Source of the DNA: a virus
Length of the DNA: 64,000 nucleotides
Reading direction: 5' to 3' (one strand)
Virus record (IMG/VR): IMGVR_UViG_3300025121_000027
Span: 1-64,000 of that record
A program made the position numbers and the translations under genes. Position 1 is the first letter of the stretch; every line of letters begins with the position of its first letter. This document shows positions 1 to 47,389 of this stretch, piece after piece. Under the pieces are notes generated by a model that was not told the origin of the DNA, did no database searches, and saw only the letters and a list, made by a program, of their open reading frames with translations.

Positions 1-878
1 CACCTCCATATAATATTTTTTACATTATCTTCTGTCTTATTCGCATTTGTATGCTCTTGCATATTCTTTCTAAAATTTAATTTAATGGAGTAATCCATTT
101 TCATCGAATCGATATAAGTATCTATTCTTTCGTCCATCTCTTTTTGTACATTGATATGAGTCCTAACAACAACCGATTTGTCTATTGGTATTTTTATCTC
201 TTCAATGGAATTATCTTCTGCATACCAAAGATAAAAGCATGGCTGATGGTCGATCTGATCTGCATCCATTCTCATTACAGAACCAGCATTGACAATCCTT
301 CTGTTATTAACTTCTATATCGAATCTTGTATGATTGTCTCCGCTTAGAATTAAGTCGTATCCTTTTAACTCTTCCAAAATGTCATACGCATTTCTGGTTT
401 CAAACATTGCTTTTTCTAAACTGATTTGCATATGAACGAGACAAATATATGGCTCTTCGTCTCTTCTCTTTCTTCTTGGTTTTGGCTCTATTCCATAAGG
501 AAAACCTACTACTTTAAAACCATCGCAATCTATTGTTGTTTCATGATTTAAAATAACTTCTGCTTTGTTTGCTTCTTGTAATACTGCAAGGCCGGACTTA
601 TTAAATAGCTCCAAGTTATGGTTTTGGTTGTCATGTTGACCTGGAATACAAATAAATTCCGGCATATATTCAAGAGCAATGCGAAGTAGCTCGGGAGAAG
701 GCTTCCAATAATTAAAGACATCCCCAGCGATTAATAAGGGAATATTATATTTGTCGCATATCTGATTAGCGTACTTTGCTTTATTTATTTGCGCTTGCAT
801 GAAATCATCTACACGACAAGTAGGGGTATCTTCTCTCCAGTGCCAATCAGAAGCAAGTAGTGCGGAAGGTTTTTTCAT
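1..878 (-). CDS. Mre11/SbcD-like metallophosphoesterase nuclease (3' end runs off the window)
   Basis: Not in the ORF track. ATG at 878 overlaps the upstream stop (ATGA). Reads MKKPSALLASDWHW...IAGDVF...IPGQHD, matching calcineurin-like DxH/GD/GxHD motifs. Adjacent to the Rad50-like gene. Confidence 0.85.
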   Translation of the reverse strand, partial: MKKPSALLASDWHWREDTPTCRVDDFMQAQINKAKYANQICDKYNIPLLIAGDVFNYWKPSPELLRIALEYMPEFICIPGQHDNQNHNLELFNKSGLAVLQEANKAEVILNHETTIDCDGFKVVGFPYGIEPKPRRKRRDEEPYICLVHMQISLEKAMFETRNAYDILEELKGYDLILSGDNHTRFDIEVNNRRIVNAGSVMRMDADQIDHQPCFYLWYAEDNSIEEIKIPIDKSVVVRTHINVQKEMDERIDTYIDSMKMDYSIKLNFRKNMQEHTNANKTEDNVKNIIWR

Positions 879-1969
879 TTCCAGTCTCCTCCGCACAAAG
901 GGCATTCCTTCGGTGCCATCAGTTTATATTCTGTAGCCACTTTCTTATATTCTTTTTCTGCTTTCTCTAACTCTTCTTTGGCATCAATTATTTTATTCTC
1001 TATTTCTATAAATTGGTCTATCTCTTTTCTAAGAGAATCAATTTCATTTCTTTGCTTTAGCAATAAAGATATATCTTCTTTTGCTTTAACAATAGAATTT
1101 GCTCTTTCTATTTCATCTTCTAAATCAGCTATCTTATTTTCTATTGATTCTAATTCTGCTATCTTGTTTTCTATAGTAGATATTTCTTGCTTCAAAGATA
1201 TAAGTTGTTCGATTTCTTTCTTGGCATTTACTGTAAGTGGTTTATATCTGTCTATCTCTTTTTGAAGTTCTATTATTTTGCTTTTACCATTTCTTAATCT
1301 CTGCTCATCATTTCTAATAATAGATAAACTGGATTCTATTTGCTCAAGTTCCGTTAATTCTTTTTCAGCAGAATCAACCCAATTAAAATCTTCTACTTGT
1401 AGTTCTGCTCTTATTAGTTCTGCTTCTTCTCTTTTTATTGTTGCTCTTGTATCCCTTATTTCACTATCAGCATTTCTAAATGATGTATCTATATCTGAAA
1501 GCGAAGCAATTTGATTTAGCTTCCTGCCTATTTCTCCTGGCTTATCTCCTACAAGAAAATGTGGATTGTCTTGCTCTTGAAAATTAATCTCGCTCATATT
1601 CAAGGGATTAGATACTTCATCTGGTACTCTTGTTCCTACTGCTTCAAGTGGTTTTGTTAATGTAGATATTCTATATTCATTTGACTTTGGTCCTTTGACT
1701 CTTGATATCTCTGTTCCGTCTTCAAATACAACAGTAAATATACACTCGCCGGTTAATTCAAAATCGCCATTTTTCTTTTTCTTCTTTATCCAATCAGAAG
1801 CAAATTCGTTTCCGCTTGGATCATTATCTTTAAGCCATTTAAGTCCTTTAAGTATTGCCGATTTGCCTTTATCAGAAACACCGCAAATTATATTGACATT
1901 GGGAGAAAGATCGAAAGTCTCTTTCTCCCATGACATAAAGTTTTGGATTTTGAATTGCTTAAATTTCAT
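875..1969 (-). CDS. Rad50/SbcC-like ABC ATPase, N-terminal half (Walker A, coiled coil, terminal CxxC hook)
   Basis: Likely start MKFKQFKIQNFMS at 1969. Contains G-VSDK-GKS and a coiled coil, and ends CPLCGGDWK. Confidence 0.85.
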   Translation of the reverse strand: MKFKQFKIQNFMSWEKETFDLSPNVNIICGVSDKGKSAILKGLKWLKDNDPSGNEFASDWIKKKKKNGDFELTGECIFTVVFEDGTEISRVKGPKSNEYRISTLTKPLEAVGTRVPDEVSNPLNMSEINFQEQDNPHFLVGDKPGEIGRKLNQIASLSDIDTSFRNADSEIRDTRATIKREEAELIRAELQVEDFNWVDSAEKELTELEQIESSLSIIRNDEQRLRNGKSKIIELQKEIDRYKPLTVNAKKEIEQLISLKQEISTIENKIAELESIENKIADLEDEIERANSIVKAKEDISLLLKQRNEIDSLRKEIDQFIEIENKIIDAKEELEKAEKEYKKVATEYKLMAPKECPLCGGDWK

Positions 1970-2169
1970 TTTATTAAGTCTTTTAAATCTAAAATTCCTT
2001 TTGGTTTTTCTATAGTTGGATCTCCTGCAACAATCCAATACGCATATGTTACTGCTTGAAAAATATTTGCTGCTTTTAATTCCCCAATATCAACAAAGTA
2101 TTTATAAACAATAGAATCAATTTGCTGTTTTTCTTTTGCTGCTTGTTTTAAAGCATCTTATTGGCTCAT
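1966..2169 (-). pseudogene. 67-codon hypothetical gene with an in-frame TAA at codon 4
   Basis: ATG AGC CAA TAA GAT GCT... then open to TGA at 1966. Both ends form ATGA overlaps with the neighbouring genes. Confidence 0.6.
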
Positions 2170-2741
2170 TTCTTCATTGCCTCTTTCGCTTTTTTAATCA
2201 GTTCTTTTTCTTCTTTAGAAAACTTATTCCTACAAATAAACGGATATACTTTCTGATAAATCTTTTTCCATGTTTCATTCCAACCAAATCTTGGATACTT
2301 AGGCAAAGCTTTTCTTTTAGGAAACGCCAAAAAATAATACTTACAAATTCTTTTGTATTCAGGAATTGTTATTCTCTTGCGCTCTATCTTTCTTTCATTA
2401 GGATGGATTATCAACTCCTTAATTGGTGGTTGTTCTATATAATCAGCACATCTTCTTAATAGTTCTGGAAGAGATATTACTTTATGTAATCCATATCTGC
2501 GCCAACTTCTTTCTAATTTACCTTCAAATGAATTTGCGTTTCTATGAATGACGCCTCTTAAACAACCAAGTCTATCTTTACCGCCACACTCTTCTGATTT
2601 AAGTTTATGTTTATGATCCAGTACACACTCGGCTTTATCAATACAAACTCCAAGAATAGCACACTTGCCATCTTGCTTTTTAAATTGCTTCTCTCTTAAC
2701 TCTGCAAGTTCTTTTGAAGTAATAGATATAAGTTTAGACAT
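2166..2741 (-). CDS. Recombination endonuclease VII-like Holliday junction resolvase
   Basis: QDGKCAI...VLDHKH...LRGVIHRNANSFEGK resembles the T4 gp49 motif. Confidence 0.8.
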   Translation of the reverse strand: MSKLISITSKELAELREKQFKKQDGKCAILGVCIDKAECVLDHKHKLKSEECGGKDRLGCLRGVIHRNANSFEGKLERSWRRYGLHKVISLPELLRRCADYIEQPPIKELIIHPNERKIERKRITIPEYKRICKYYFLAFPKRKALPKYPRFGWNETWKKIYQKVYPFICRNKFSKEEKELIKKAKEAMKK

Positions 2742-2749
2742 TTACTTTT

Positions 2750-3325
2750 TTACTTTCTATTATAATATACATCATAAAGTTTCTCTGCATATCCATTCTT
2801 TTTATACTCTGGCCCATTATACTTATAAGCAAAGTCATTCCAATTTCTGTCTTGTAGCTCATAGGCAAGACCTACATTCTTAATGTAGTTACAGAAAGAA
2901 ATTAGATGTTCTCTTTCAGAATCTTCCATTGCATTTACAAAATCGTAAACATCTGCAAAGCCACAATAAGCATGATTAACTCCGAGAATTTGAAACTTGC
3001 CCCACGAAGCAGACATATAAGCACAAGCTGGATTGCATAATTTTGCTGCGTTTAATCTCTTCCATTCTTCTTTTTGATTCTTACCATAGAATTTCTTTGT
3101 CCATTTAGGATAAGAAATAGTCGGATACTCTCTATCATATTTATGTTGTGTTAAACGAGAAAACCAATGGCCTTCAAATAGAATAACAGGAAGGCCATCT
3201 TCAGAGAATCCTCCATTCGGCGCTTCTACTTTTGCTACCGCTTGAATAGCGGCAACTTCACACTTCAAAATTTTAGCAGCTTGTTTATAGTCTGCTAATG
3301 TCAGAGTATTATTTTTACTGCTCAT
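2750..3325 (-). CDS. N-acetylmuramidase (DUF3380 family) endolysin
   Basis: AVAKVEA..GGF, ILFEGHWF, SASWGKFQILGVNH and YNGPEY motifs. Confidence 0.88.
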   Translation of the reverse strand: MSSKNNTLTLADYKQAAKILKCEVAAIQAVAKVEAPNGGFSEDGLPVILFEGHWFSRLTQHKYDREYPTISYPKWTKKFYGKNQKEEWKRLNAAKLCNPACAYMSASWGKFQILGVNHAYCGFADVYDFVNAMEDSEREHLISFCNYIKNVGLAYELQDRNWNDFAYKYNGPEYKKNGYAEKLYDVYYNRK

Positions 3326-4510
3326 TTAAAATCTCCTTGGAGTTTTAAACATAAGCATTTTTTCTACTTCTTTCCAAACAGAGCCAACAATATCTTGCAA
3401 CTTATCTTGTAGATTATTATCTTCGATATACTCTATCAAATTATCTTTACTCTTTTTTATATCAAATTCTTTTGCTACAATTCCTTTTGTATCGCTTGCC
3501 CAATGCTCTGTTAATTTTAAGAAGTCAATGCAAGATTCAACATCATGCAGACCATAAGATTCATAGATAGGAATTACAACTCCGCTCTTTCTTTTCTTTC
3601 CTGTAAGCTTATTTTTAATAACTTCAATTTGCGCCATACTCCCTATCTTATGTTTTAAATTCATTGCTTCTTCTGTAATACTTTTAATTGAATTAAGATA
3701 CAGTTGATGAAATGAATAGAAGAACGGAGCATCCCCGCCAGAAGTTACCCAATCAGTCTGGCCAAAACCACTTTTAAATCTTTGTCTTGTTTGCTGAATA
3801 ATAAATAGAGCACTATCTGTGCGCTTTATATTGCCATTAATCATTCGCAAAGCTTCTCCTATATGCTTTGCTTTCTCTGCTTTATATGATCCTTTAAGTT
3901 CTGTTACCGCTTCTGCACTCTTAGCGTTTTTGATAGCGTTCTTATATTCTCTTTCCATTTCTTCATCGGAAGTTAGAGAATCAAGACTATCCAAAACCCA
4001 AATAAAAGGTCTTCTCTGTTTACATTTAATTAAGATATTGCCTTTAAAATCTTGGATAGTCTCAGAAGGAACTGGTTCTCCATCGTCATAGTTCGGTGCT
4101 TTCAATCTACCTGAAGTAAGGTCTTCTGGGTCTTTTGGTGCTAACGGAGGGAATAAATAATCAAGATCAAAAGAAAGAGATTGCTCCCCATCATCATAAA
4201 TAAATTCATATTCTTTAAACTTAGGATCGACAGCGCAACACGCAAGCATAGTTAGCATCAATACAGTTTTTCCAGAAGCAGATTTGCCTGGAATAGTATT
4301 GATAGAGCCTAAAGCAAAGGCTCCCTTTGGGTTGTCGCTACAAGCACAGTTGACCAAAGTAGAGCCAGAAGGAATCAATCTATCTTCTGTTATCTTTTTA
4401 GGGTCTGGACCTACATACTCTTCTGGCTCATTCTCTTTTGTTCTGTCTCTATTCTCTATCTGCTCTGCCGCCGCACTTCGTCTTCGTCTTTTTTGAATAA
4501 GTTCTGCCAT
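3326..4510 (-). CDS. recA: RecA/UvsX-like recombinase
   Basis: PSGSTLVN, Walker A GKSASGKT, VLDSLDSL, TSGGDA and VIKNK motifs. Confidence 0.88.
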   Translation of the reverse strand: MAELIQKRRRRSAAAEQIENRDRTKENEPEEYVGPDPKKITEDRLIPSGSTLVNCACSDNPKGAFALGSINTIPGKSASGKTVLMLTMLACCAVDPKFKEYEFIYDDGEQSLSFDLDYLFPPLAPKDPEDLTSGRLKAPNYDDGEPVPSETIQDFKGNILIKCKQRRPFIWVLDSLDSLTSDEEMEREYKNAIKNAKSAEAVTELKGSYKAEKAKHIGEALRMINGNIKRTDSALFIIQQTRQRFKSGFGQTDWVTSGGDAPFFYSFHQLYLNSIKSITEEAMNLKHKIGSMAQIEVIKNKLTGKKRKSGVVIPIYESYGLHDVESCIDFLKLTEHWASDTKGIVAKEFDIKKSKDNLIEYIEDNNLQDKLQDIVGSVWKEVEKMLMFKTPRRF

Positions 4511-6988: not shown

Positions 6989-9067
6989 TTATCCTGCACT
7001 CAATTGATACAATGGAAACACAATATCTCCCCATCCGTTAGCATAAGTAACAGTTTTCAAGGCTTCATAAACATCTGTCAATCTTATCATCGGGTCTTCA
7101 TCCCCTCTTTTCTTTTTCTTTTGATCCGATGAAAGAGCTATCTTTGTAATGTATCCTATGACTGCTCGGCGAACGTTCTCTGCATCTTCTCCCTTTTGTT
7201 TTATCTTGTATATAATATCTTTGATTCGCGCCCAGGATTCGCCGTTCGCTAATGACTGGCATAAATCCTTTATCTCTGCTTCAAGCGGCGTAAAACTGTT
7301 AATAGCTGTTATGATCGCTTCATCTTCAAGATCGATTACTTGGTCCAGTATTTTCAAAGCATCTCTCGGACAGCCATCGGCAGTATCTATAATTGCTTGA
7401 ATAGCTTTATCTGGAAATGAGCCAACATCTTCTTTCTTTAGAGTTCTGAGAAGAAGGGTTTTCATTTCTGTATCATTCAAAGGGTTGACTTTAAATGTAT
7501 GGCATCGGCTATGAATGGTTCCGATAAGTCTTTGCGGGTCTGTAGTACAAAGAATAAAATAAACCCAAGGCGGTGGCTCTTCCAAAGTTGTCAAGAAATT
7601 ATTCTGTGGAATGTTCTTCTCGGACGCACCGCCAGAGCCTATCATATGGCAATTATGAACAGGTAAACCGTTAGCGAAATAAGACGGATGATTTTTAACT
7701 TGCAAATCATAACAAATTACATATCCTTGATCTTTTTCTTTATCTCCGATAATACTTTGGAAACATTCGTCATTATTTCCTCGTTTGTAAATCTCAGAAT
7801 TTGCCAGCCTAATTCCTTTAGTTTTGCTGTTTTCTTTATATCTCTCAATATAATTTTTTTCGCACCGTGACTCTTTCCATCTACTTCTATTGCAAGCTTC
7901 AGTTTCTTGTTGCCAATATCTACTTTGTAGCAAGTTGGATAGCCAGGAAATCTTCCACCAAGCGGAATAGCAACTTCCATAGGCCAATTCAATGCTTTTG
8001 ACAATAAGACTTGTGGCTTTGTGAACTCCCCATTCCCTCCACGAGGAACAGGGCACAGGTGCAATGTTCCATTTGTCTCTTTTGTAGATTTCATTTTTTC
8101 TACATACTCTAAATTGAACATGGGATTTTTCTTTTTCATTCGCTTGGAATGTTTCTCTCCTATATAATCTCTCATTTCTTGAGACATATTTTTCCAAGCT
8201 TTTGCTACGCTCTTGCTGCGTTTTTTTCTGGCTTGTTCTGTATTGCATGTCGCTCTGTATTCTGGATGCTGCCGCAAATTCTCGTTGGCACATTTCCTCC
8301 CACAAAATCGATTCCCCAATTTTTTGACAGGCTTGCCGCATATCAAACATAAAGACCGAGATTTTGTCATTGATAAATTGTGACATTCTTTGGAGCAATA
8401 TTTCTGCCATTTCCGAATTACTTTGTTGCACGTCGCGCAATATTTGATTTCTCTCATTTGTTATTCCTATAAATTCAGAATCAAGCGGATAAATTATATC
8501 ATCAGAAGTAAGGTTTTGCGCTTCTACCCATCCCTTTGAAGTAAAAAATAAATGATCTTTAGTTGTATAAATATTTCTATCTTCTGAAAAAGTTAATTTA
8601 ATAAGTCTATCAAAAGATATTTTATTTTGCGATACAGCGACAACTTTATCTTTGCCATATAAAGAAACAATATCTTGATCAACTTTAATTTGTTCAATTG
8701 GGATATTGCCGCTTGGCGTTTCGATCATAGTTCCAGCAGGAAAACATTCTTCGATAAGCCAAACCCTACACTTTGCAACAGATGGTTTATAAGAGATACT
8801 TCTTTTCAATTCCTTAATGGTATCTGCTTTAACATCTCCACCATCAATCTGATAGAAGTCTGGACATTCATCGATAGGCATACCAAGAAGCTTCTCTGCA
8901 ACGATTCTTCCTGTTGTGCTCTTGCCGCTTCCTTTTGGACCCATAAACAACCAAGCGTGTGGCAAGTCTTTTTCTCTGGAAAAGATTGTCTTAATACTAT
9001 TGACCATATCTACATTACCAACAATTTCATCTAATGTCTTTGGTCTGTATGTAGTTTGAAGCGGCAT
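6989..9067 (-). CDS. dnaX: DNA polymerase III gamma/tau-like clamp loader, intein-containing
   Basis: YRPKTLDEIVG, Walker A GPKGSGKST, Walker B WLIEE|CH, LEEPP, SRC and GCPRDA motifs. Confidence 0.92.
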   Translation of the reverse strand: MPLQTTYRPKTLDEIVGNVDMVNSIKTIFSREKDLPHAWLFMGPKGSGKSTTGRIVAEKLLGMPIDECPDFYQIDGGDVKADTIKELKRSISYKPSVAKCRVWLIEECFPAGTMIETPSGNIPIEQIKVDQDIVSLYGKDKVVAVSQNKISFDRLIKLTFSEDRNIYTTKDHLFFTSKGWVEAQNLTSDDIIYPLDSEFIGITNERNQILRDVQQSNSEMAEILLQRMSQFINDKISVFMFDMRQACQKIGESILWEEMCQREFAAASRIQSDMQYRTSQKKTQQERSKSLEKYVSRNERLYRRETFQANEKEKSHVQFRVCRKNEIYKRDKWNIAPVPCSSWREWGVHKATSLIVKSIELAYGSCYSAWWKISWLSNLLQSRYWQQETEACNRSRWKESRCEKNYIERYKENSKTKGIRLANSEIYKRGNNDECFQSIIGDKEKDQGYVICYDLQVKNHPSYFANGLPVHNCHMIGSGGASEKNIPQNNFLTTLEEPPPWVYFILCTTDPQRLIGTIHSRCHTFKVNPLNDTEMKTLLLRTLKKEDVGSFPDKAIQAIIDTADGCPRDALKILDQVIDLEDEAIITAINSFTPLEAEIKDLCQSLANGESWARIKDIIYKIKQKGEDAENVRRAVIGYITKIALSSDQKKKKRGDEDPMIRLTDVYEALKTVTYANGWGDIVFPLYQLSAG
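7652..8746 (-). mobile_element. 365-aa intein in DnaX
   Basis: Starts CFPAGTMI, block B TKDHLF, ends YDLQV...YFANGLPVHN followed by Cys+1. Confidence 0.93.
7717..8457 (-). CDS. Zinc-finger + Vsr/DUF559-like (EDxHD-type) homing endonuclease nested in an alternate frame of the DnaX intein
   Basis: Two CxxC..FCS/YCS..C modules; YKVDIG..LAIEVDGKSH..D..LKELGWQILRF. Offset 610 nt from the dnaX start (different frame); AGGA upstream of the ATG. Confidence 0.85.
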   Translation of the reverse strand: MREIKYCATCNKVIRKWQKYCSKECHNLSMTKSRSLCLICGKPVKKLGNRFCGRKCANENLRQHPEYRATCNTEQARKKRSKSVAKAWKNMSQEMRDYIGEKHSKRMKKKNPMFNLEYVEKMKSTKETNGTLHLCPVPRGGNGEFTKPQVLLSKALNWPMEVAIPLGGRFPGYPTCYKVDIGNKKLKLAIEVDGKSHGAKKIILRDIKKTAKLKELGWQILRFTNEEIMTNVSKVLSEIKKKIKDM

Positions 9068-18994: not shown

Positions 18995-19910
18995 TTAAGT
19001 TAGTCTCCTTTTTTATTTTAGAAAAAAATGATTTCTTGATATACATATTTGATTTTTTGGTATGGCCGCTTCCTAAAATAGTGCGATTATAAAACCAAGA
19101 CATTATTCTTAATCTCTCTTGCTCGGACCATCCAAGTTCTTTTTGTTCTTCTGTTATCTTGTTTTTATACATAGCGTCCGATCTTCTAAACCACATAGGA
19201 ATAGGCATGATGCCACTTTTTTCTATAAACATGCATCTTGCCCATGCCTCTTGCGGATCGGAATTAAAACCAATAAGAGCATAAGACCTTATATTAGAAC
19301 GCTTGACGCCTAAATCAGTAAGCAGTTTGACCGCTGAAATCCATTTGTCTATATAAGAATTATCATCAAGGGCTATTCGTAAAACAGCTTTTTTGATTCT
19401 GGCGAATTGTCTCGCGTGATACTTCGTTAAAATTCTAACGTCGATGCCGCCATTAAAATCAGCCCATCCCCACTCATCTACCAGCCCATTAATAACCTTT
19501 TGAAAATGACTTCCAGACGAAGCCAAGATATTGTTGTCGCAAACGATAGGTAGGTTTGGCCATTCATCAAGTTCTGTAAACTTGCCTTCTGTTTTTCTTA
19601 CAAGACAGAACTTGCACTTCCTTATACACCCATAGGTTGTTTTGGTTGCCAGCGGTTCGAATCTCTGTAAAACTCCTTTGATATCTCCCGTATCGACAGT
19701 AACTCCAGAAATACCAGAAAGAAAAGAAGGCATAGCCTTAACAGCAGGGCCACCAACTACAACAGGAGAAAACTTATAAGAAGTTTTCAAGTGTGATTTT
19801 AATTTAGGAAGTAGCCAAGTGAATGGGACGCTTATAAAAGTCGTCCCATTCACTTCCCACTGTATCCAAGACTTTGGCCACTTTGCTTTTCTATACTTTT
19901 GCTTGTTCAA
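18987..19910 (-). CDS. Radical SAM protein
   Basis: VGGPA; TTYGCIRKCKFC (CxxxCxxC); DNNIL. Confidence 0.85.
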   Translation of the reverse strand: MNKQKYRKAKWPKSWIQWEVNGTTFISVPFTWLLPKLKSHLKTSYKFSPVVVGGPAVKAMPSFLSGISGVTVDTGDIKGVLQRFEPLATKTTYGCIRKCKFCLVRKTEGKFTELDEWPNLPIVCDNNILASSGSHFQKVINGLVDEWGWADFNGGIDVRILTKYHARQFARIKKAVLRIALDDNSYIDKWISAVKLLTDLGVKRSNIRSYALIGFNSDPQEAWARCMFIEKSGIMPIPMWFRRSDAMYKNKITEEQKELGWSEQERLRIMSWFYNRTILGSGHTKKSNMYIKKSFFSKIKKETNLNG

Positions 19911-20596
19911 ATTTTGCCTTTTTCAATGCGATATTTATAGGTAGCAACATGCAGGTGGGTGGTTACGGCGCCTTGGAAATTCTTTCTAACAAGGTCTGCA
20001 ATTTGTTGATTGGTCATACTTTTAAACTTGCCAGACTTGACACCTTCAGCGATGAATTTGCCGACTCCAATGGGTTTTTTGCCATTTTGTTTGTCTGGTT
20101 TTTTTGTTACTTCTTTTTCTACATCATTCTTTTTTGTCTCTGCCTTGGTGTCTTCTTTCCCCTTTTCTTTTTTAGGTTTTTTGGTTTCCGCTACTTTCTT
20201 TTCAGGCTCCGGCTCGACTGGTTTGGTTTCAACTACCGGCTCCACTTTCGCTTTAGCTTTCCCGCCTTTCTTTTTCGCGGCTTTCTCAACAACAGGAGCT
20301 TCTTCTACAACAGACTCATCAATCTTTTCAGGTTCGCATACACAGGGGACTCCAAACAGATTGGCAACATCAATATCAAGAACGCGCATCAATTCAATTT
20401 CATCAGCAGAGAATTTGTCCTTGTCTTCTGGAAGCAGATCTTCATTTGCAGTTTTAATAATCTCTTCTGTCATTGCTTTTATAGTATGGGTTTTCTTTGT
20501 ATCATACATAATAGGATCATCTGGAGAAAGAATCTTCTCGTTAAAAGTCTTCACCAGTCCAGCAAGCATAGCTTTTGTAACATCGGATTTGTTCAT
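19907..20596 (-). CDS. Lys/Glu-rich hypothetical protein, possibly DNA-binding
   Basis: Start reassigned to MNKSD at 20596 (AAGGA RBS), because promoter copy 3 overlaps the track start. Confidence 0.6.
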   Translation of the reverse strand: MNKSDVTKAMLAGLVKTFNEKILSPDDPIMYDTKKTHTIKAMTEEIIKTANEDLLPEDKDKFSADEIELMRVLDIDVANLFGVPCVCEPEKIDESVVEEAPVVEKAAKKKGGKAKAKVEPVVETKPVEPEPEKKVAETKKPKKEKGKEDTKAETKKNDVEKEVTKKPDKQNGKKPIGVGKFIAEGVKSGKFKSMTNQQIADLVRKNFQGAVTTHLHVATYKYRIEKGKI

Positions 20597-20647
20597 GAAG
20601 CATTCCTTTCGAGTATGTTTTTTAGTATGTGGTAGCGGATTCATATC

Positions 20648-20676
20648 ATTATAATAAGACATTCCAAAAAAATAAA
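20648..20676 (-). promoter_or_regulatory. Phage promoter motif, copy 3
   Basis: TTTATTTT-N12-TATTATAAT. Confidence 0.75.
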
Positions 20677-44364: not shown

Positions 44365-45270
44365 ATGTTTAATGCTTTTGACATATCCAGCTATACACCA
44401 AGACAGCTAATGGATTCAATTCCACCGAATCCTATTCCGATAGCCGAAAGAATACTGGCAGAAAAATCATTAAAGCATTTTGTAATGCAAGCCTGGCATA
44501 TACTTGAGCCGAGAAGCCCTTTGATTTGGAATTGGCATCTTGATGCAATCTGCCAACACTTAGAAGCAGTAACAAACACCTATCTTATTAAATCAGGAAT
44601 AGCTGGAAGAGAAATAGACAACCATTTCTATGAAGCAAATTATTCCATTCCTTCTATAAACTACTTATGGATAAATATGCCGCCGAGACATGGTAAGAGT
44701 TTGCTTGTTTCTGTCTTCTGGCCATGTTGGGAGTGGGGTCCGAAAAACCTTCCAGACTTACGATATCTTTTCATCTCATATGCACAGCCACTATCTACCA
44801 GAGACAATTTAAAACGAAGAAGATTGATAGAGTCCAATTGGTATAGAGAAAGATGGGGAGAGCGTTTTCATCTTACTACAGATCAGAATGCAAAAACTCG
44901 CTTCGATAATGACAGAACAGGAGTAATGATTGCAACTTCTATCTCTGGTCTTGGAACGGGCGAAGGCGGGCAACGCGTTTGTCTACCATATAACCAGAAG
45001 ATAGATACAGAAATTGGTAGGGTCGAGATCGGAAAGATCGTCAAAGAAAAATTAGAAATCAAAGTTGTTAGTTTTAATCATAAGACAAATAAAACAGAAC
45101 TTTCTAAAATAGAAAAGTATTTTGAAAATGAAGGCCGAGATATTTTTGAGATAGAACTTGAAGACGGCACGACATTTCGATGTACTGAAGATCATCCTGT
45201 ATATGTTAATGGTAAAGGGTATATTCAAGCAAGAGAATTAACAGAAGAAGATGAGGTGGTCTGCTTATAA
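44365..45270 (+). CDS. terL: Terminase large subunit N-half fused to split intein IntN (44980-45267)
   Basis: WNWHL, Walker A INMPPRHGKS, TGEGGQRV|CLPYNQ...CTEDHPV...ELTEEDEVVCL then stop. Confidence 0.92.
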   Translation: MFNAFDISSYTPRQLMDSIPPNPIPIAERILAEKSLKHFVMQAWHILEPRSPLIWNWHLDAICQHLEAVTNTYLIKSGIAGREIDNHFYEANYSIPSINYLWINMPPRHGKSLLVSVFWPCWEWGPKNLPDLRYLFISYAQPLSTRDNLKRRRLIESNWYRERWGERFHLTTDQNAKTRFDNDRTGVMIATSISGLGTGEGGQRVCLPYNQKIDTEIGRVEIGKIVKEKLEIKVVSFNHKTNKTELSKIEKYFENEGRDIFEIELEDGTTFRCTEDHPVYVNGKGYIQARELTEEDEVVCL

Positions 45271-46280
45271 TGGGTTGTTTATATCAAATAACTTCTCCAT
45301 CTGGTAAGTCTTATATAGGCATTACTAATTTTACCGCTCAAGAAAGATGGTCTCAGCATGTAGGCGAAGCATTAGGGTCAAGGTCTAAAAGAGCAATTTC
45401 TAATGCTATAAGAAAATATAGCTCTGATTTGTTTGATGTTAAAACACTTCTTATTGCAAATGATGCGGCTTATTTAAAGTTGATGGAAGTTAAAGTAATT
45501 GCGGCATTTAAAACGCATACACCTAATGGTTATAATATGACTGCTGGCGGAGATGGTGTTGTTGATTTAGATAGCGAGACTTTTAAAAATCTTCTTGAAA
45601 AACGCTTAAAAACTATAAGGTCGAAAGTATATAGAAAGAAAAATTCAGAAACTCAAAAGGCGCTTTGGACAGAAGAAAAAAGACAAGAAAGATCAAGAGT
45701 TGTTTCTGAATTGTGGGAAGATGAAAATTATCGCAATCATATGTCTGAAGTTCACAAAGGATGGCATTATTCTAAAAGAGAAAGAGAAAAAGCGTCTATA
45801 CGTTCTAAAAAACGCTGGAGTAATCCGGAGTATGTCAAAAGACATAAACTTATGATGAAGAAACTTTGGCAAGATGATGAATTTAAAAAGAAAATGGCTG
45901 AAGCCACAACCGATGAAGTAAAAAAGAAGATAGGTGTTGCTTCAAGAAAGATGTGGTCTGATCCAGAGTTTCATGCAAAAAGAAGTAAGCAAATGAAAGA
46001 GTATTTTAATTTGCCAGAAGTTAAAGAAAAAATAGCTGAAAAAACAAGACAACAAATGGCTGATCCAGAAGCAAGAAAAAAGATTGGTGAAGCCATGTGT
46101 AAGCATCGAGGTTATATCTTTTCAAAAGGTATTAAACCAAAAAATCCGAGAAGCGTGTTTTATAAAATTTGGGACAAGATAGAAAGTAAGATAACATTCG
46201 CAGAGCTTTATCGTTTTGATATTGAAAGCCGTAGAATATCAGAAGCTGTTGATCGTGGCTATTTGGTGATTGTTAAATAA
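45270..46280 (+). CDS. Free-standing GIY-YIG homing endonuclease with NUMOD3-like repeats
   Basis: LYQITSPSGKSYIGIT, RW..H, E...I and GYNMTAGGDG; repeated basic W-containing helices. Confidence 0.88.
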   Translation: MGCLYQITSPSGKSYIGITNFTAQERWSQHVGEALGSRSKRAISNAIRKYSSDLFDVKTLLIANDAAYLKLMEVKVIAAFKTHTPNGYNMTAGGDGVVDLDSETFKNLLEKRLKTIRSKVYRKKNSETQKALWTEEKRQERSRVVSELWEDENYRNHMSEVHKGWHYSKREREKASIRSKKRWSNPEYVKRHKLMMKKLWQDDEFKKKMAEATTDEVKKKIGVASRKMWSDPEFHAKRSKQMKEYFNLPEVKEKIAEKTRQQMADPEARKKIGEAMCKHRGYIFSKGIKPKNPRSVFYKIWDKIESKITFAELYRFDIESRRISEAVDRGYLVIVK

Positions 46281-47389
46281 TGAAGATTAAGAAGATAAAA
46301 AGTATTAGACGAATCAGAAAAGACTCTGCTACTTATAATATTCAAGTAGCAGATAACTATAATTATTTTGCCAATGGTGTACTTGTTCATAATTGTATTG
46401 ATGACGCCCATAACGTGCTTGAAGTAGAATCAGAGCCAAAAAGACAAAAAGTATTAGCTGTCTGGGACGATACTCTTTCAACTCGTGTCAATGATGTAGA
46501 AGTCGGTGCTTATGTCGGCGTCATGCAAAGAACACATTCAAAAGATTTAACTGGTCATATTTTAGAAAAGAGAAAAGATGGGCAGATAGACAATCTTGTG
46601 CATGTATGTCTTCCTGCAAGATACGAAAAGAATCATCCGCACCCTTCTGATACTCCATTAAACTTTACAGACCCAAGAACAGTAGAAGGCGAGCCTTTAG
46701 ATAAAGGAAGACATCCAGAAGATAGTCTAAAGCAATTAGAGGGAAAACTTACTGCCTGGGGTAAGGCTGGTCAGTTACAGCAAAGACCAAGGCCAAAAGG
46801 TGGTCAGATTGTTCAAGCAGGAAAAATTAAGATAGTAGATAACTATAATCATAGATTAGTAAAGAAGATGGTGCGTTACTGGGACAAAGCTGCCTCTGAG
46901 GATAAAAGTGCTTCTCACTCAGTAGGTCTTCTGATGGCATCTATGAGAGATGAATGTATTGACTACGGCTTTATTGTTCTGGATGTTGTCTACGGCCAAT
47001 GGACTTCTGGCGAGCGTGATGTAAGAATGCGTCAAACTGCTCAGATGGATGGAATAGAAGTTGAACATGTAGTAGAGCAAGAAGGTGGCTCCGGCGGTAA
47101 AGAATCAGCACAAAACTCCATAAGAAAAGTATTTCTTGGTTATAAGTGTTCAGCAGATCACCCATCAGGCGCAAAAGATGTAAGACTTGAGCCGTTCGCT
47201 GGCCAAGTAGAAAACAACAATATTGCTATGTTATCTGCTCCTTGGAATAAAAAATATGTGGAAGCATTAGAAGAGTGCTCTGTTGGTTCCGTAACAGACT
47301 TTGGGGATGGTTCTTCTGGTGCTTTTAACTGGCTTAATGGTTTAACTGGTAAGGGAAAGTCTAAAGTAAGAATAGGAGTTGTAGGATAA
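46280..47389 (+). CDS. terL: Split intein IntC (46280-46393) fused to terminase large subunit C-half
   Basis: MKIKKIKSIR...YNIQVADNYNYFANGVLVHN|CIDDAHN; then VMQRTH..DL.G, QLQQRP, RYWDKA and EQEGGSGGK nuclease domain. Confidence 0.92.
   Translation: MKIKKIKSIRRIRKDSATYNIQVADNYNYFANGVLVHNCIDDAHNVLEVESEPKRQKVLAVWDDTLSTRVNDVEVGAYVGVMQRTHSKDLTGHILEKRKDGQIDNLVHVCLPARYEKNHPHPSDTPLNFTDPRTVEGEPLDKGRHPEDSLKQLEGKLTAWGKAGQLQQRPRPKGGQIVQAGKIKIVDNYNHRLVKKMVRYWDKAASEDKSASHSVGLLMASMRDECIDYGFIVLDVVYGQWTSGERDVRMRQTAQMDGIEVEHVVEQEGGSGGKESAQNSIRKVFLGYKCSADHPSGAKDVRLEPFAGQVENNNIAMLSAPWNKKYVEALEECSVGSVTDFGDGSSGAFNWLNGLTGKGKSKVRIGVVG

Follow-up and report, generated by a model that had tools for sequence, protein, structure and literature searches.

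The stretch of DNA analysed here, hereafter the window, comprises the first 64 kb of the 107,005-bp IMG/VR virus record IMGVR_UViG_3300025121_000027, which has direct terminal repeats and is estimated to be complete; the region is present in several groundwater metagenomes and in one run labelled soil. The window contains a gene for a DnaX-like clamp loader that is interrupted by a predicted class-1 intein, and within this intein lies a second gene, complete with its own start and stop and placed between the two HINT halves, which is read in the +1 frame and encodes a candidate homing endonuclease of the Vsr-like/DUF559 class. Both open reading frames (ORFs) are on the minus strand, which an earlier, sequence-only reading of this DNA had left unstated. 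The features of the locus, with the evidence for each, are as follows.

6989–9067, minus strand: DnaX-like clamp-loader precursor ORF, 692 amino acids (aa), with no stop through the intein (ORF list and Pfam matches).
8747–9067, minus strand: N-extein, 107 aa, ending in the Walker B motif ...RVWLIEE (translation).
7652–8746, minus strand: predicted class-1 intein, 365 aa, from Cys1 to Asn365, followed by the +1 Cys of the C-extein (Pfam, alignment, match to solved inteins).
8483–8746, minus strand: N-terminal HINT half, intein residues 1–88, with a confident fold (AlphaFold2 (AF2) model m2f8df406847e, predicted local distance difference test score (pLDDT) 87–93).
7817–8482, minus strand: host-frame linker, intein residues about 89–310, open, poorly conserved and poorly predicted (AF2 pLDDT, identity among relatives).
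7720–7816, minus strand: putative dual-coded stretch, intein residues 311–342 (first C-terminal HINT strand) and nuclease residues about 215–246 (last strand and helix) (both models confident).
7652–7719, minus strand: remaining C-terminal HINT blocks F and G, YDLQVKNHPSYFANGLPVHN (translation, alignment A2, pLDDT 86–92).
6989–7651, minus strand: C-extein, 220 aa and stop, beginning CHMIGSGG (translation).
8465–8468, minus strand: Shine-Dalgarno (SD)-like AGGA, 7 nt upstream of the nuclease ATG (sequence).
7717–8457, minus strand: nested +1-frame gene, 246 aa, for a zinc-ribbon and Vsr-like/DUF559 homing-endonuclease candidate (Pfam, AF2, Foldseek, alignment).

The 692-aa ORF matches the Pfam families DNA_pol3_delta2 (6.3e-18) and AAA, with a further match to DNAX_ATPase_lid that lies under the cut-off (20.6 bits, cut-off 27). 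An intein-free homologue, L028 (313 aa), reads RVWLIDEAHMIGSGG at the corresponding site, and its protein shares 47% identity with the predicted 327-aa spliced product. A blastn search with the 2-kb gene against 50,697 phage records gave no match.

In the precursor, Cys1 of the intein is residue 108, in the context IEE/CFPAGT (the slash marking the splice junction), block B reads TTKDH and the intein ends in PVHN/CH. The host ORF scores 48.3 bits against the Pfam Intein_splicing profile, for which the cut-off is 35.8, and in an alignment of relatives (A2) the positions C1, H65 of block B and V363-H364-N365 are invariant. The nearest solved intein by sequence is gp41-1 (E 8e-18), with NrdJ-1 and the Spl DnaX mini-intein also matched. 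The AF2 model of the intein is confident for residues 1–88 and 311–365 only, the blocks of residues 81–310 that include the linker having a pLDDT of 29–74. The insertion thus has the Cys1, the block B TxxH, the terminal HN followed by Cys +1, the above-threshold profile match and the HINT fold of a class-1 intein and, judged by sequence and model, it is one, with splicing predicted.

The nested ORF extends from an ATG at 8455–8457 to a stop at 7717–7719, and its offset of 610 nt from the start of the host ORF places it in frame +1. The encoded protein matches DUF559 in Pfam (4.7e-13, 49.4 bits against a cut-off of 20.6). Its N-terminus carries Cys pairs that form putative CxxC...CxxxC zinc ribbons with invariant Cys residues, the first of them at residue 7, and gives weak matches to DUF2116 and DZR_2 and no match to NUMOD motifs. 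An alignment of 21 nuclease sequences shows CxxC...CxxxC, GGNG, CYKVDIGN, E191, D193, H197, D206 and W218..R222 to be invariant, the form RGGNG being found in at least 90% of them; the residues of catalytic type (D180, E191, D193, H197 and D206) are invariant across these relatives, and every invariant residue of the family, including the Cys ligands, is intact in the window copy. The AF2 model of the nuclease has a mean pLDDT of 89.1, and its top Foldseek match is 3r3p, the catalytic domain of I-Bth0305I (E 6e-4, probability 1.00, template-modelling (TM) score on target 0.61), followed by 1vsr (Vsr) and 3hrl, a DUF559 protein (TM score on target 0.72). Profile comparison places the protein closer in sequence to 3hrl (6.4e-9) than to 3r3p (1.7e-3), and the putative EDxHD residues fall one position out of register with D196/H213 of I-Bth0305I in a hidden Markov model alignment. 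By profile and predicted fold the protein belongs to the Vsr-like/DUF559 class, and DNA cleavage is predicted.

The coordinates pair each nuclease residue j with intein residue j + 96. Over 7720–7816 both products are confidently modelled, the intein with a pLDDT of 80–92 and a strand at 312–319 and the nuclease with a pLDDT of 96–98, a strand at 219–224 and a helix at 232–245, and about 32 codons therefore appear to be truly dual-coding. The sequence-only reading had placed an intein of 365 aa with intact splicing blocks at 7652–8746 and, in a shifted frame at 7717–8457, a 246-aa zinc-finger and Vsr/DUF559 ORF behind an AGGA-ATG; the coordinates of both prove exact, and the profile matches and invariant blocks bear out the assignments. 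Its remark that the middle of the intein looks like off-frame sequence also agrees with the low pLDDT of the linker and with the lower conservation of the host frame reported below.

Two open frames and the selection acting on them

The openness of both frames, which had been called unexpected from the sequence alone, proved to be so when it was simulated. With the nuclease protein held fixed and its codons redrawn from window usage in 5000 trials, the host frame acquired a mean of 24 stops and a minimum of 11, against none observed in its 692 codons, while permutation of the gene's own synonymous codons gave 16 on average and never fewer than 8. A host-frame stop arises only where a nuclease codon ending in T precedes a codon beginning with AA, AG or GA. 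None of the 89 junctions at risk in the nuclease gene is preceded by T, as compared with 56 T-ending codons at the 156 other positions, and pooling 20 nested relatives gives T at 0/1540 at-risk junctions against 962/3175 elsewhere. The place of T is taken by C, which stands at 25% of at-risk junctions versus 8% of other positions in the window and at 21% versus 13% in the pooled relatives. Dual openness by chance is therefore excluded, and the host frame is held stop-free by selection. Replacing NNT by NNC never alters the encoded residue, which lets the host frame stay open without any penalty for the nuclease protein; and because every host-frame stop needs a T at the third position of a nuclease codon, the +1 register is workable and cheap to evolve. 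In other genes of the window an alternative frame is open for at most about 60–136 codons, antisense shadows aside. One such shadow had to be discarded as a second dual-coding case: the two overlapping ORFs (253 and 214 aa) at 19874–20654 on the plus strand are antisense to a Lys/Glu-rich gene of 251 aa at 19907–20662 on the minus strand.

The same arrangement is found widely among relatives. When viral contigs were searched with the nuclease, 26 loci at 36–50% identity came to light; all of them (26/26) have the nuclease inside an open frame of 687–1207 codons, in the relative register seen in the window, and a closed third frame. Of 72 further loci from a profile scan 69 are nested likewise, as are 3/3 from metagenome-assembled genomes (MAGs) and 3/3 from metagenomes, the MAG scan having been limited to the pattern CYKVDIGN so that its three loci say little on cellular hosts. 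Overall, 101 of the 104 related loci show same-register nesting in an unbroken host frame. Natural controls are provided by L057 and L099, relatives whose nuclease gene is free-standing: there the corresponding frame is interrupted by 9 and 29 stops, respectively. The host genes encode DnaX-like clamp loaders and SF2 or SNF2-type helicases, and in nearly all relatives the intein sits at a Walker B or DExH motif (DE/C...HN/CH). Run against 1.84 billion representative proteins, the nuclease profile returned 837 clusters at E<=1e-30, mostly of 190–310 aa.

Mean pairwise identity among relatives over the same nucleotides drops from 0.39 in the nuclease frame to 0.23 in the host frame, with substitutions most frequent at position 3 of the nuclease codons. 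Comparison of L018 with L022 gives 71 synonymous and 126 non-synonymous differences in the nuclease frame and 16 and 181, respectively, in the host frame. The nuclease frame is thus the frame under protein-level purifying selection and the host frame is relaxed. Homologues which remain open in both frames, together with selection measured for each frame, had been proposed as the check on the dual-coding claim, and both point the same way.

Some relatives depart from the layout of the window. In a set of helicase loci (L015, L017–L026) the nuclease start lies inside the N-terminal HINT domain, behind an SD-like GGAG made by host Val-Glu codons, and the ORF ends 2 codons before VHN. The 219-aa nuclease ORF of the helicase relatives spans about 79% of the 276-aa intein, blocks B and F included, and these limits mean that most of the intein, including those two splicing blocks, is overprinted. 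At another locus (L011, 2953–3507) the intein follows DEIHK, an SNF2-like site which is not DE/C, and the nuclease ORF extends about 11 codons beyond the end of the intein into the C-extein. A MAG contig (L101, CAMBQV010000099.1, host frame 3–3380) presents a single helicase ORF with two inteins: the first is canonical, with in-frame LAGLIDADG-like motifs, and ends THN/C; the second, at IIDE/CFPSGT, holds a nested +1 Vsr-like nuclease.

Expression, mobility and alternative explanations

An SD-like core precedes the chosen start in about 17/21 aligned relatives, as read by eye, which favours independent internal initiation of the nuclease; in the window the ATG is preceded by nuclease-frame stops 2 and 4 codons upstream. 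Evidence of mobility comes from the helicase relatives, in which intein and nuclease are 98.7–100% identical while the flanking exteins are 81–93% identical, so that the tract of low divergence coincides with the intein. The identity is too uniform to be accounted for by overlap constraint and indicates recent homing, of which it is the usual sign.

The element is therefore very probably a mobile class-1 intein at the Walker B motif (IEE/CH) of a phage DnaX-like gene, the endonuclease slot of which is filled by a homing gene of free-standing type in the +1 frame. The overlapping-gene homing element proposed by the sequence-only reading is in this respect sustained by the stop avoidance, the 101/104 loci, the frame-specific conservation, the two structure models and the homing signatures in relatives. 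Ribosomes translating dnaX would produce the 692-aa precursor, from which the 365-aa intein, with its roughly 220 residues of filler, would splice itself out to leave the 327-aa clamp loader. Initiation at the internal AGGA-ATG by a minority of ribosomes would yield the 246-aa zinc-ribbon and Vsr-like nuclease, which may then cut intein-less alleles, at sites of the ..IDE/AH.. type, in co-infecting phages; repair would copy intein and nuclease together into the cut allele.

Several points weigh against such a reading. RNA folding at the nuclease start is no better than that of shuffled sequences (z = 0.66), and therefore neither a regulatory hairpin nor any sign of the hairpin sequestering the ribosome-binding site that is described for fractured-gene endonucleases is seen there. 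In a promoter and terminator scan, promoter-like sites were less numerous than in shuffled sequences, and neither an internal promoter nor a terminator was detected. The N-terminal DNA-binding part of the nuclease appears to consist of zinc ribbons and not of the NUMOD motifs of I-Bth0305I. The homing signature belongs to helicase relatives and not to the dnaX allele of the window, the nearest relatives of which are only 44–50% identical. Translation of the nuclease, cutting of DNA and splicing of the precursor are all predictions from sequence and structure models.

The alternatives differ in which part of this account they deny. A nuclease truly in frame with its intein, displaced by two compensating indels from assembly or sequencing error, is vanishingly improbable: an off-frame reading of a real domain would hold about 24 stops where none is seen, the same register recurs in the 101/104 independently assembled relatives, contigs from other groundwater samples (X5 and X7) carry the region with no letter inserted or deleted, and the nuclease frame has its own ATG, its own stop and the two stops upstream. 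Frameshift assembly errors, which the sequence-only reading had named as a possible refutation, are accordingly not found in these contigs, and the host frame has 0 stops. Production of the nuclease by programmed +1 ribosomal frameshifting from the dnaX/intein frame, to give a fusion of N-extein, the N-terminal intein half (IntN) and nuclease, would have a precedent in the dnaX gene of Escherichia coli, which uses programmed frameshifting. It could also explain a protein, P0008, that was returned by the representative-protein search: its 496 aa run from a helicase N-extein and IntN, without a change of frame, into a related zinc-ribbon/Vsr-like nuclease, the stop of which ends the protein. An indel, an artefact of gene calling and a genuine fusion are all conceivable for P0008, and its own locus was not found in scans of viral and metagenome contigs. 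We nevertheless consider frameshifting very improbable, since P0008 may simply reflect an indel, the upstream stops and the first zinc-ribbon Cys at residue 7 confine any shift to about 6 codons in which no slippery motif was seen on reading the sequence by eye, and most relatives have an SD-like motif and ATG. A further view accepts both products and denies present mobility, the nested gene of the window being a fixed passenger or a domesticated nuclease and the intein acting as a mini-intein with a long tolerated linker. It is in keeping with the lack of any close relative of the window dnaX allele, with or without intein, that would show recent transfer, the nearest extein relative found being 47% identical, and with the absence of a blastn match among the phage records. 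The intact state of all invariant family residues in the window copy, including those of catalytic type and the Cys ligands, and the recent spread of the family as a whole speak against it, and we regard it as improbable.

Rather less improbable, yet still unlikely, is that the layout represents a short-lived intermediate, with a contiguous intein on one side and a fractured gene carrying a split intein on the other, as the sequence-only reading had suggested. The closest solved intein, gp41-1, is a fractured-gene split intein; the 3′ end of the nuclease gene overlaps the strand equivalent to that of the C-terminal intein half (IntC), as occurs in fractured genes (6–69 bp overlaps; PMC2677866); in the same genome a large terminase gene (TerL) is itself fractured, with the halves of a split intein flanking a GIY-YIG gene; and a DnaX-like relative, L058, has a single host-frame stop in its linker, so that one nonsense mutation gives the fractured layout. 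Against transience stands the occurrence of the layout in 101/104 loci at 33–50% nuclease identity and in several host genes with perfect stop avoidance; so deep and perfect a conservation of the open host frame argues for a stable design and long-term maintenance. A link to split inteins, for which the affinity to gp41-1, the 3′ overlap and the L058 stop all speak, is hence plausible on sequence grounds, whereas the status of intermediate is only partly supported, with conservation across deeply diverged loci and several host genes against it.

The two loci involved deserve description in their own right. L058 (IMG/VR contig 3300007537_000440, host frame around 3001–3765) has the same intein and nested nuclease, with its one host-frame stop in the filler between ...NGTK and KQRN.... 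Candidate explanations are that the locus is a split or fractured derivative of natural origin, that the allele is dead or that the stop is a sequencing error. The fractured TerL of the window (44365–47389, plus strand) consists of two ORFs, the first of which ends in a 97-aa IntN (...GGQRV/CLPYNQ... and then a stop) and is followed by a 336-aa GIY-YIG gene, while the second ORF begins with a 38-aa IntC (...VLVHN/CIDDAHN). The IntN of TerL is only 26% identical to that of DnaX, and no sign of intragenomic spread is seen between them.

It is conceivable, though we put it forward as a tentative proposal, that the element is part of a large clade of phage inteins not yet published, counting some 100 loci or more together with 837 nuclease clusters (E<=1e-30), which almost always has its Vsr-like homing endonuclease overprinted in the +1 frame, a register favoured by the NNT to NNC change, and which is perhaps the contiguous sister or source of the gp41-1-type split inteins, a single nonsense mutation such as that of L058 being enough to split it.

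Whatever their history, such loci matter for annotation, as gene callers either miss the nested nuclease or call it and break the host gene, with the result that phage replication genes and mobile elements are mis-annotated. With about 740 nt overprinted, the family is a clean natural case of a long overlap in which a simple rule keeps one frame open without cost for the other, and it extends the recently described non-canonical inteins to a sense-strand Vsr-like nuclease. Its gp41-1-like HINT domains, the relative with a single stop and the fractured TerL of the same genome provide material for testing the origin of split inteins, and both the HINT domains and the nuclease, if active, could be used as splicing or cleavage tools.

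Comparison with known systems

The high novelty that the sequence-only reading claimed for an endonuclease hidden in an overlapping frame does not hold, as three reports precede it. Out-of-frame or antisense intein endonucleases are attributed to Gorbalenya (1998), as cited in two preprints of the Gogarten laboratory. A close counterpart is the cyanobacterial dnaX intein with a LAGLIDADG endonuclease in an overlapping frame (Phillips, DeSimone and Gogarten, bioRxiv 10.64898/2026.09.14.751524). It shares with the window the DnaX host family, a contiguous intein with a disordered in-frame middle, a complete overlapping-frame endonuclease ORF with an SD-like motif, and purifying selection on the endonuclease frame with relaxation of the host frame. 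The two differ in the enzyme, which is a LAGLIDADG protein there and of the zinc-ribbon and Vsr-like/DUF559 type here, and in the setting, the present intein being that of a groundwater phage and its element family being found also in phage SF2/SNF2 helicases. The third report describes actinobacteriophage inteins with antisense LAGLIDADG, antisense VSR-like and frame-3 endonuclease VII-like homing endonucleases, and proposes that a free-standing homing endonuclease gene invades the intein and that jumps from gene to gene proceed via shared nucleotide-binding motifs (Gosselin, Arsenault and Gogarten, bioRxiv 10.1101/2025.01.02.630785). Those are likewise phage inteins with the endonuclease encoded apart from the splicing frame; however, their VSR-like enzymes are antisense and their sense out-of-frame enzyme is endonuclease VII-like, whereas the Vsr-like enzyme here is read from the sense strand in the +1 frame. 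Their hosts are terminase, capsid, polymerase or ThyX genes, in contrast to the clamp loaders and helicases invaded here at Walker B. In the literature searched, no sense-strand +1 Vsr-like endonuclease in a contiguous intein was found.

Free-standing Vsr-like or GIY-YIG endonucleases are known from fractured genes with split inteins, in which overlaps of 6–69 bp occur, and Vsr-like nucleases were stated there not to be known inside inteins (Dassa et al., 2009, PMC2677866). The resemblance to these fractured genes is close: a phage DNA-metabolism gene holds a same-strand Vsr-like gene at the canonical endonuclease insertion point, the 3′ end of the nuclease gene overlaps the IntC coding start out of frame, and the HINT domain is nearest to gp41-1. 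The host frame of the window is unbroken, however, a single frame of 692 codons with no stop after IntN and no restart before IntC, and splicing would be in cis; among the relatives, L058 alone shows a host-frame stop.

The nuclease itself is best compared with I-Bth0305I, the prototype EDxHD (Vsr-like) homing endonuclease (Taylor et al., 2011, PMC3239194; PDB 3r3p). Both appear to carry their conserved acidic and His residues on a common core and to be bipartite, with N-terminal DNA-binding and C-terminal catalytic parts. I-Bth0305I is encoded by a group I intron and binds DNA through NUMOD motifs, unlike the predicted Cys4-type zinc ribbons and helical region found here. An overlapping homing-type nuclease is also known outside inteins, in the ShiLan insertion of phage methylase genes, where an HNH endonuclease lies out of frame (Arsenault et al., 2025, PMC11855218). 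There, too, the nuclease ORF occupies an alternative frame and the host frame is left open; but the ShiLan insertion, lacking a splicing domain, is retained in the protein, whereas here a complete intein is predicted to remove the filler. The layout itself is thus already known, and the present case adds to the non-canonical inteins a member with variant features.

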